Source of the DNA: a virus
Lineage: Duplodnaviria; Caudoviricetes
Strand: one strand, 5' to 3'
IMG/VR virus record: IMGVR_UViG_3300044614_001923
Length of the DNA stretch: 64,000 nt
The notes beneath the pieces were generated by a model, which was not told the origin of the DNA, did no database searches, and saw nothing but the letters and a program-made list of their open reading frames with translations. Below are positions 34,000-35,721 of this stretch, piece by piece (the first letter of the stretch is position 1; every line of letters starts with the position of its first letter). The position numbers and the translations under genes are program-made.

Positions 34000-34030
34000 C
34001 TATACATTTGTTATTTAGATTTTAATTATA

Positions 34031-34102
34031 CACCCTGAGGAGGATTTGAACCACCGTCTTATTCGTTCGTAGCGAAGCACTCTTCCACTGAGTTATCAGG
34101 GC
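34031..34102 (-). tRNA. trnR: tRNA-Arg(ACG)
   Basis: TTCG-CTACGAA-CGAA. Confidence 0.93.
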
Positions 34103-34107
34103 GTAGG

Positions 34108-34179
34108 CGAAGGATGAGGGACTTGAACCCCCACTAGCGGTTTTGGAGACCACCGTGCTACCAATTACACCAATCCAAC
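34108..34179 (-). tRNA. trnW: tRNA-Trp(CCA), two U-U mismatches in the acceptor stem
   Basis: GTGGT-CTCCAAA-ACCGC. Confidence 0.8.
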
Positions 34180-34183
34180 ATAG

Positions 34184-34257
34184 TATCCATGAGAGGACTC
34201 GAACCTCCAACAAATAAATCCTTAGTCTATTGCCTCTTCCAATTGGGCTACATGGAT
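34184..34257 (-). tRNA. trnL: tRNA with AAG anticodon (Leu), short variable arm
   Basis: ATAGA-CTAAGGA-TTTAT; variable region TTGTT. Confidence 0.75.
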
Positions 34258-34260
34258 ATA

Positions 34261-34331
34261 CTGGGTGACTAGGACTCGAACCTAGATAAACGCCTTCAAA
34301 GGGCGGTGTCCTACCATTAGACGATCTCCCA
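34261..34331 (-). tRNA. trnQ: tRNA-Gln(TTG)
   Basis: CCGCC-CTTTGAA-GGCGT. Confidence 0.92.
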
Positions 34332-34403
34332 AGCCCTCAATTGGATTTGAACCAACGACCTACTCATTACTAGTGAGTTGCTCTACCACTGAGCTATAAG
34401 GGC
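34332..34403 (-). tRNA. trnT: tRNA-Thr(AGT)
   Basis: ACTCA-CTAGTAA-TGAGT. Confidence 0.9.
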
Positions 34404-35481: not shown

Positions 35482-35519
35482 ATGAGACAATTTTATCCGA
35501 TATGAATTCAATTGTCAAG

Positions 35520-35602
35520 TAGGACGAGAGGGACTTGAACCCTCACAGGCAATGCCCGACAGATTTTAAGTCTGGTGTGTCTACCAATTCCACCACCGTC
35601 CC
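35520..35602 (-). tRNA. trnL: tRNA-Leu(TAA)
   Basis: CCAGA-CTTAAAA-TCTGT; long variable arm; no intron. Confidence 0.95.
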
Positions 35603-35628: not shown

Positions 35629-35721
35629 TAGGAGTGGAGGGACTCGAACCCCCAACCGCACGGTAATCTGCCGTATACGGAAGGTATAAGCTTCCCGCTC
35701 TGCCAATTGAGCTACACTCCC
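35629..35721 (-). tRNA. tRNA with TAT anticodon and ~25-nt extra arm (Ile-like, identity uncertain)
   Basis: GGAAG-CTTATAC-CTTCC followed by TACGG-CAGATTA-CCGTG arm; 93 nt. Confidence 0.75.

Follow-up and report, generated by a model that had tools for sequence, protein, structure and literature searches.

[quoted passage not shown]

In Escherichia coli, leucine identity has been assigned to A73, the A15-U48 pair, G18G19 and A20a, and it involves neither the anticodon nor the long variable arm (review, PMC9976931). A type I, that is short-armed, tRNALeu(CAA) has been described in Streptomyces coelicolor, which is leucylated by the LeuRS of this organism and also by human mitochondrial LeuRS (Fan et al. 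2019, PMC6614811). The E. coli LeuRS and the LeuRS of one other Streptomyces fail on the same tRNA, and the leucine-specific domain of the enzyme decides the outcome; acceptance of type I tRNA-Leu is thus enzyme-dependent (PMC6614811). Leucine tRNAs with an AAG anticodon are known from the Lactobacillales, in which A34 is edited to I34 in Oenococcus and Streptococcus (PMC11472039, PMC13249217). TadA from S. pyogenes edits Leu(AAG), for which a widened consensus, YUAMGRA, has been given, whereas TadA from E. coli does not (PMC11472039). An earlier note on the DNA described here had taken as established that bacterial tRNA-Leu normally carries a long variable arm and that A34 is mostly limited to Arg(ACG). 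Both statements need qualifying: the type I tRNALeu of Streptomyces is an exception to the first (PMC6614811), and the Leu(AAG) of Oenococcus and Streptococcus, which becomes IAG, to the second (PMC11472039, PMC13249217). A short arm and A34 have thus each been seen before in tRNA-Leu; what is new here is a cyanophage as the carrier, together with the AAG anticodon. We found no paper describing short-arm tRNA-Leu in phages, and what comes nearest in print is a brief comment about a Mycobacterium tRNA cluster (PMC6582537).

Here, we analysed a stretch of viral DNA of 64,000 nucleotides, referred to as the window. ARAGORN called 25 tRNA genes in the window, 24 of which are located at 28.8-35.7 kb on the minus strand. 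One of them is a tRNA-Leu(aag) at 34183-34257 on the minus strand, and Rfam family RF00005 matched at 34184-34257 on the same strand with 53.6 bits (E 1.3e-9). Its cloverleaf was parsed by hand from the reverse complement. The gene, its parts and its neighbours are:

34184..34257, minus strand: tRNA-Leu(AAG), type I (short variable loop), 74 nt up to the discriminator, CCA not encoded
34251..34257, minus strand: 5' strand of the acceptor stem, AUCCAUG, pairing with CAUGGAU at 34185-34191 (hand parse)
34232..34248, minus strand: D arm, GCC(C)-AAUUGGAAGA-GGC, with A14, A15, G18G19, A20 and A20a; the family signature
34214..34230, minus strand: anticodon arm, AUAGA-CUAAGGA-UUUAU, with the anticodon AAG at 34223-34221, G37 and a G30.U40 pair
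34209..34213, minus strand: variable loop, UUGUU, 5 nt, without an extra stem; its last base is U48, the partner of A15
34192..34208, minus strand: T arm, GGAGG-UUCGAGU-CCUCU, with U54, U55, C56 and A58
34184, minus strand: discriminator, A73
34030..34403, minus strand: array Arg(ACG)-Trp-Leu(AAG)-Gln-Thr(AGU), with spacers of 0-3 nt
35519..35602, minus strand: canonical type II tRNA-Leu(UAA), 84 nt, with a long variable arm and the D arm GUGG-AAUUGGUAGA-CAC; the leucine comparator within the window

The earlier reading of the letters is borne out for the anticodon (AAG), the discriminator (A73) and the variable loop (5 nt) by ARAGORN, Rfam and the hand parse. U8 and A9 separate the acceptor stem from the D arm, the D stem consists of three base pairs plus a C13.A22 mismatch, and A26 follows the D arm. 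With A73, A14, A15-U48, G18G19, A20a and U54-A58, Leu(AAG) carries the full bacterial leucine identity set. The long variable arm of a canonical type II tRNA (more than 10 nt and forming a stem) is absent, the loop being 5 nt long. The sequence G36-G37 suits m1G37, a modification that is usual among CUN readers. When the window copy was folded as a single sequence, without tertiary contacts or modifications, the minimum-energy fold reached -17.0 kcal/mol and the cloverleaf -14.0 kcal/mol (z -0.41). We set this result aside, because covariation is seen among the orthologues (see below) and because tertiary contacts and modifications lie outside the folding model.

The nearest likeness to the array was found in the T4-type cyanophage Synechococcus phage S-PM2, with 79.8% identity over 57% of a 1.9-kb query. 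The S-PM2 array runs Arg(ACG)-Trp-Gln-His and that of the window Arg(ACG)-Trp-Leu(AAG)-Gln-Thr(AGU)-His, so that Leu(AAG) and Thr(AGU) are extra genes, missing from S-PM2. Within the window, the only other leucine tRNA of the phage is Leu(UAA), a UUR reader. The Thr tRNA next to His (window 34332-34403, minus strand) has the anticodon AGU in the window and in the related contigs L031, L268-L270 and L129, and GGU in L088 (895-967) and L130 (8280-8351), and is thus a second G34/A34 switch of the array. A further tRNA of the window, at 35629-35721 on the minus strand, is 93 nt long, has the anticodon UAU (Ile) and a long extra arm, and so combines a class II shape with a class I isotype. The tRNA array of relatives also holds a permuted tmRNA of the cyanobacterial type (L129:4662-4917, minus strand; L031:1690-1989; L269:95-394; L130:10298-10591), which in L129 matches Rfam RF01851 with 105.8 bits. 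The tag peptide predicted by ARAGORN is ANNIVAFSRSK(S/T)TALV in three of these four relatives and a shorter ANNIVAFSRQTALV in L130; in the window, ARAGORN called no tmRNA. The presence of a permuted tmRNA in the array of the relatives fits a cyanobacterial host.

Leu(AAG) is conserved among related viral contigs. An exact 36-nt pattern taken from the window copy had no match in IMG/VR, because U40 is unique to this copy, but a 30-nt core of the gene was found in 11 IMG/VR contigs and the AAG anticodon arm in 35. Contigs with Leu(AAG) are up to 249 kb long. A sequencing error in the anticodon, which the earlier note had allowed for, is excluded by these 35 independent occurrences of the AAG arm. 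In all 14 arrays examined, the slot Gln-[Leu]-Trp-Arg(ACG) is filled by Leu(AAG) or by its GAG form. Among 19 distinct Leu(AAG) sequences, 100% of the stem cells are paired and 13 of the 20 pairs show double-sided changes, a result reached by none of 500 shuffles. The compensatory changes among the orthologues affect the acceptor pairs 1:72, 2:71, 3:70 and 5:68 and three pairs of the T stem. As pairing is kept while both partners change, there must be selection on Leu(AAG) as a folded tRNA. The anticodon stem is weaker in the window copy than in any orthologue, since this copy alone has U40 and hence G30.U40, where 35 relatives have C40. CCA is encoded in seven of the 12 copies first compared; the window copy lacks it, as do the other tRNAs of its array. 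One lineage of Leu(AAG), seen in L297 (2811-2888) and L308, has a 2-nt deletion at positions 9-10 and a broken D stem, and is possibly decaying.

The D arm places Leu(AAG) in a family. It is an exact match to the pattern GCCC-AAYNGGNAGA-GGC, which spans 20 nt, leaves three positions free and lies outside the anticodon. At least 120 IMG/VR contigs contain this pattern exactly, and among the matches listed, 105 of the 108 tRNAs bearing it have a leucine anticodon. These 105 viral tRNAs carry UAA, CAA, UAG, GAG, AAG or CAG and are all 74-78 nt long. A scan of cellular genomes (one per prokaryotic species) yielded at least 120 tRNAs, and those listed are likewise all tRNA-Leu of 74-78 nt. Of the 228 tRNAs listed in the two scans together, 225 are leucine tRNAs by anticodon; these 225 include each of the six leucine anticodons and measure 74-78 nt without exception. 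One body combined with anticodons of both leucine codon boxes would be expected if the synthetase does not read the anticodon. The cellular matches listed are mostly single chromosomal genes of Actinomycetota; single chromosomal short-arm Leu(UAA/CAA) genes were seen in a great many members of this phylum, including Nocardia, Mycobacterium, Corynebacterium, Gordonia, Amycolatopsis and others (L132-L251). Short-arm tRNA-Leu also appeared in the cellular scan in some Planctomycetota and in other metagenome-assembled genomes. No cyanobacterial genome is among the at least 120 cellular matches as listed. The spread of chromosomal short-arm tRNA-Leu thus exceeds the single Streptomyces case that has been studied in print.

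The members of this family share more than the D arm. A73 is present in 99 of 100 viral and in all 120 cellular members, U48 in 95/100 and 117/120, and the 5-nt variable loop in 90/100 and 119/120, respectively. In an alignment of 65 diverse members (A1), the positions A14, G18, G19, A20a, A35 and A73 are invariant, the leucine identity set is invariant or at least 90% conserved, and the consensus at position 20 is C. The acceptor stem begins with a G1.U72 wobble in 49/100 viral and 15/120 cellular short-arm leucine tRNAs. We also built a covariance model (R1) from the 65 short-arm tRNA-Leu of A1, leaving out the cyanophage AAG group. Scored with R1, 49 of whose 65 training sequences had been found by the D-arm pattern derived from the Leu(AAG) of the window, Leu(AAG) reached 77.6 bits (E 1.3e-19), followed within the window by a Lys tRNA (58.1 bits); the type II Leu(UAA) scored 44.7 bits and Arg(ACG) 30.1 bits. 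The related IMG/VR contigs L306 and L315 carry four short-arm leucine tRNAs (AAG, UAG, UAA and CAA) and no long-armed one in the available stretch.

Codon counts, made on 61 crude ORFs of the window only, connect the anticodon to the usage of the phage. CUU is the commonest leucine codon (462 of 1250 leucine codons, 37%, vs 104 CUC) and makes up 2.8% of all codons. In these 61 ORFs, ACU and CGU, which the two further A34 tRNAs read, also lead their codon boxes, and Leu(AAG) and Leu(UAA) together cover the two most used leucine codons. The earlier note had suggested a dedicated CUU decoder for an AT-rich genome. This idea gains from CUU being the top leucine codon and from the other leucine tRNA reading UUR, but it leaves the choice of A34 over G34 unexplained, and we regard the proposed decoding of CUU by Leu(AAG) as supported but incomplete. 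We rejected the possibility that the choice between A34 and G34 follows codon use, as CUU/(CUU+CUC) is 0.76 in contigs with AAG and 0.78 in contigs with GAG. The anticodon loop, CUAAGGA, fits YUAMGRA, the widened consensus of S. pyogenes TadA. The near-complete relatives G001 (84% complete) and G002 (100% complete) encode 28-30 tRNAs. In these two genomes we detected neither an A34 deaminase (PF14437, PF00383) nor a class Ia synthetase (PF00133, PF13603), and thus no LeuRS, while the controls were positive. Editing and charging, if they take place, would therefore be functions of the host.

We propose that Leu(AAG), a gene in the array of an S-PM2-like T4-type cyanophage, probably works as a leucine tRNA of the short-arm (type I) family. 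Judged from its sequence, it is a real and conserved tRNA, unusual but no recoding device. It would be cut from a polycistronic transcript, and CCA would be added by a host enzyme. The host LeuRS would then leucylate it, with the anticodon not being read and the long arm being dispensable, as in the bacteria studied. Charging of the short-arm phage tRNA-Leu by the host LeuRS seems likely to us, given the complete identity set and the association of the family with leucine anticodons. Once charged, Leu(AAG) would read CUU by a Watson-Crick A34:U3 pair. Should the TadA of the host accept CUAAGGA, A34 would be converted to I34 and reading would extend to CUC and CUA besides CUU; formation of I34 is uncertain, since Leu(AAG) is not a substrate of E. 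coli TadA (PMC11472039). The role of Leu(AAG) might be to supply the most used leucine codon of the phage in a cell whose own tRNAs presumably suit another codon usage.

Related arrays reveal how the anticodon of this tRNA changes. A sister type I Leu(GAG) occupies the same slot in four related contigs, and the comparison of L088 (AAG) with L256 (GAG) is particularly clear: the two genes are identical at all 56 positions outside 27-44 and differ at 12 of the 18 positions inside. The differences comprise four of the five anticodon-stem pairs, the loop positions 32, 34 and 38, and position 44. This pattern, read from the aligned genes, is unlike scattered point mutation and indicates that the anticodon arm was replaced, or driven to change, as a unit. 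In L314, this AAG arm is joined to a different short leucine body. In IMG/VR, the arm pattern matched type I bodies only, and no donor of the AAG arm with a type II body was found.

A block exchange of this kind raises the possibility that Leu(AAG) is kept mainly as a counter-measure, such that the short-arm body, the swapped anticodon arm or both escape host defences or toxins that act on tRNAs and recognise the type II tRNA-Leu of the host or the anticodon loop of this tRNA, and leucine codons continue to be translated during infection. The exchange between L088 and L256, the second body carrying the AAG arm in L314 and the independence of the A34/G34 choice from codon use would all be in line with this. 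In addition, evasion of anticodon nucleases has been put forward as a role of phage tRNAs whose anticodon loops are altered (PMC10264068). Nevertheless, we consider this explanation unlikely. No nuclease or toxin that targets tRNA-Leu is known for these hosts, and the same phages carry type II leucine tRNAs as well. Moreover, Actinomycetota carry type I tRNA-Leu as an ordinary gene of the chromosome, so the body per se is no defence adaptation.

Less probable still, and in our view quite improbable, is that Leu(AAG) is a conserved tRNA-shaped RNA that the host LeuRS leaves uncharged and that serves a non-decoding role, for instance as a decoy or regulator. This idea draws on the inability of E. 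coli LeuRS to charge a type I tRNALeu in vitro (PMC6614811), and yet Felixounavirus, a group of E. coli phages, carry type I leucine tRNAs; no match to the short leucine gene of Felixounavirus was found in 5,426 complete E. coli genomes. Against it, Leu(AAG) has a standard 7-nt anticodon loop with U33 and G37, its anticodon matches the commonest leucine codon of the phage, and A73 and the rest of the leucine identity set are conserved. That the family spans the six leucine anticodons would be expected of decoders and not of decoys.

As its alternative, the earlier note had offered a tRNA with mismatched identity, which could recode or mistranslate, on the basis of a class-I scaffold and an Arg-like D loop. 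According to this reading, Leu(AAG) would be charged with arginine (via A20) or with another amino acid, and CUU would be recoded or mistranslated. The class-I size, A20, G36 and A73 are the features that could speak for it, and in E. coli the major arginine determinants are C35 together with A20, with A/G73 also among the determinants. In Leu(AAG), C35 is replaced by A35, so that the major arginine determinant is missing. A20 is not conserved either: the orthologues L299 and L311 have C20, as does the family consensus. The likeness of the D loop to that of Arg(ACG), which is AGUGGAA in the window, goes back to the string GGAAGAG, common to both tRNAs but with different structural roles in Arg(ACG) and Leu(AAG); only A20 is truly common, and the whole D arm matches tRNA-Leu instead, the type II Leu(UAA) of the window having the D loop AAUUGGUAGA. 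The body is not a grafted foreign class-I scaffold. It carries the full bacterial leucine set A73, A15-U48, G18G19 and A20a (PMC9976931), and belongs to a natural short-arm tRNA-Leu family in which all six leucine anticodons, of the UUR as well as the CUN box, are represented. In addition, with CUU at 2.8% of the window codons, misreading would damage every phage protein, and we find this reading very hard to credit. Finally, a decaying pseudogene or an assembly or sequencing artefact, which might be suspected from the unique C40 to U change, the missing CCA (encoded in seven of 12 copies) and the related lineage L297/L308 with its 2-nt deletion, has next to no probability, as all 20 stem pairs are intact, G.U being a standard pair, the same sequence recurs in many independent contigs and the other tRNAs of the array also lack an encoded CCA.

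Taken by itself, the functional leucine tRNA that we favour means that Leu(AAG) can be called correctly as a tRNA-Leu and that a recoding hypothesis is unnecessary. Beyond this one gene, short-arm tRNA-Leu genes are common in phages (at least 120 IMG/VR contigs), phages of E. coli included. As E. coli genomes were found without a similar gene and the E. coli LeuRS was negative, the question arises of how such tRNAs are charged where the tRNA-Leu of the host is only long-armed. One might speculate, though we hold it to be doubtful, that the short-arm body is a portable phage chassis, on which anticodon arms are swapped as cassettes, used in hosts whose tRNA-Leu are all long-armed. In that case, either many bacterial LeuRS enzymes accept type I tRNA-Leu, or the short arm confers a property that host tRNAs lack. 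The former would be contrary to the result obtained with E. coli LeuRS and the Streptomyces tRNA; the latter could be an escape from defences directed against tRNA-Leu, or a separate regime of charging or regulation. In any case, modular tRNA evolution is cleanly illustrated in nature by an anticodon arm exchanged as a block while the body stays constant, and the parallel G34/A34 switch of the neighbouring Thr tRNA is likewise an example of it.

Among the known systems, animal mitochondrial tRNA-Leu is also of type I and has a short variable loop as in Leu(AAG), and leucine identity lies there on A73 and A14 (PMC9976931). The mitochondrial tRNAs have a dedicated mitochondrial LeuRS and degenerate bodies, and show no evident sequence kinship with Leu(AAG). 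The tRNALeu(AAG) of Oenococcus oeni and Streptococcus, edited to IAG, has the same A34 anticodon as the Leu(AAG) of the window. The streptococcal tRNA is of type II (89 nt in S. pyogenes) and is edited by a TadA with a widened substrate range, whereas that of the window is short-armed.

Isolated phages provide closer counterparts. Using the 75-nt window gene as a BLAST query, we found Bacillus phage P59, which has two 77-nt tRNA-Leu (UAG and UAA); both combine a 5-nt variable loop and A73 with the arm GCCC-AAUUGGUAGA-GGC. Short genes of 73-77 nt with A73, annotated as 'tRNA-Leu', are present in P59, in Felixounavirus (Escherichia phage heid, Shigella phage Sf14) and in the isolate Synechococcus phage S-CREM1, which carries a type I Leu(UAA). 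P59 and heid share the same D arm, and S-CREM1 has a close variant, GUCC-AACGGCAGA-GAC. The anticodons of these tRNAs are UAG, UAA or CAA, as opposed to AAG in the window. BLAST with the two type I leucine tRNAs of P59 matched 220 records of isolated phages. Three of these were examined: heid and S-CREM1 proved to have short leucine tRNAs, as P59 itself does, while Synechococcus phage B23 has an 84-nt long-armed Leu(UAA) instead. By organism name, the 220 matches include phages of Salmonella, Shigella, Pseudomonas, Vibrio, Enterococcus and Mycobacterium. We found no paper commenting on the short arm of the tRNAs of these isolated phages, and the word 'variable' is missing from the study on the Sf14 tRNAs.

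For the type I tRNALeu(CAA) of S. coelicolor, leucylation was established by experiment. Leu(AAG) differs from the Streptomyces tRNA and from the short Leu(UAA/CAA) of Actinomycetota in its AAG anticodon in place of CAA or UAA, its cyanophage carrier, its AU-rich stems and its position in an array alongside a type II leucine tRNA. It is like all of them in the 5-nt variable loop, A73 and the D arm GCCC-AAYNGGNAGA-GGC.
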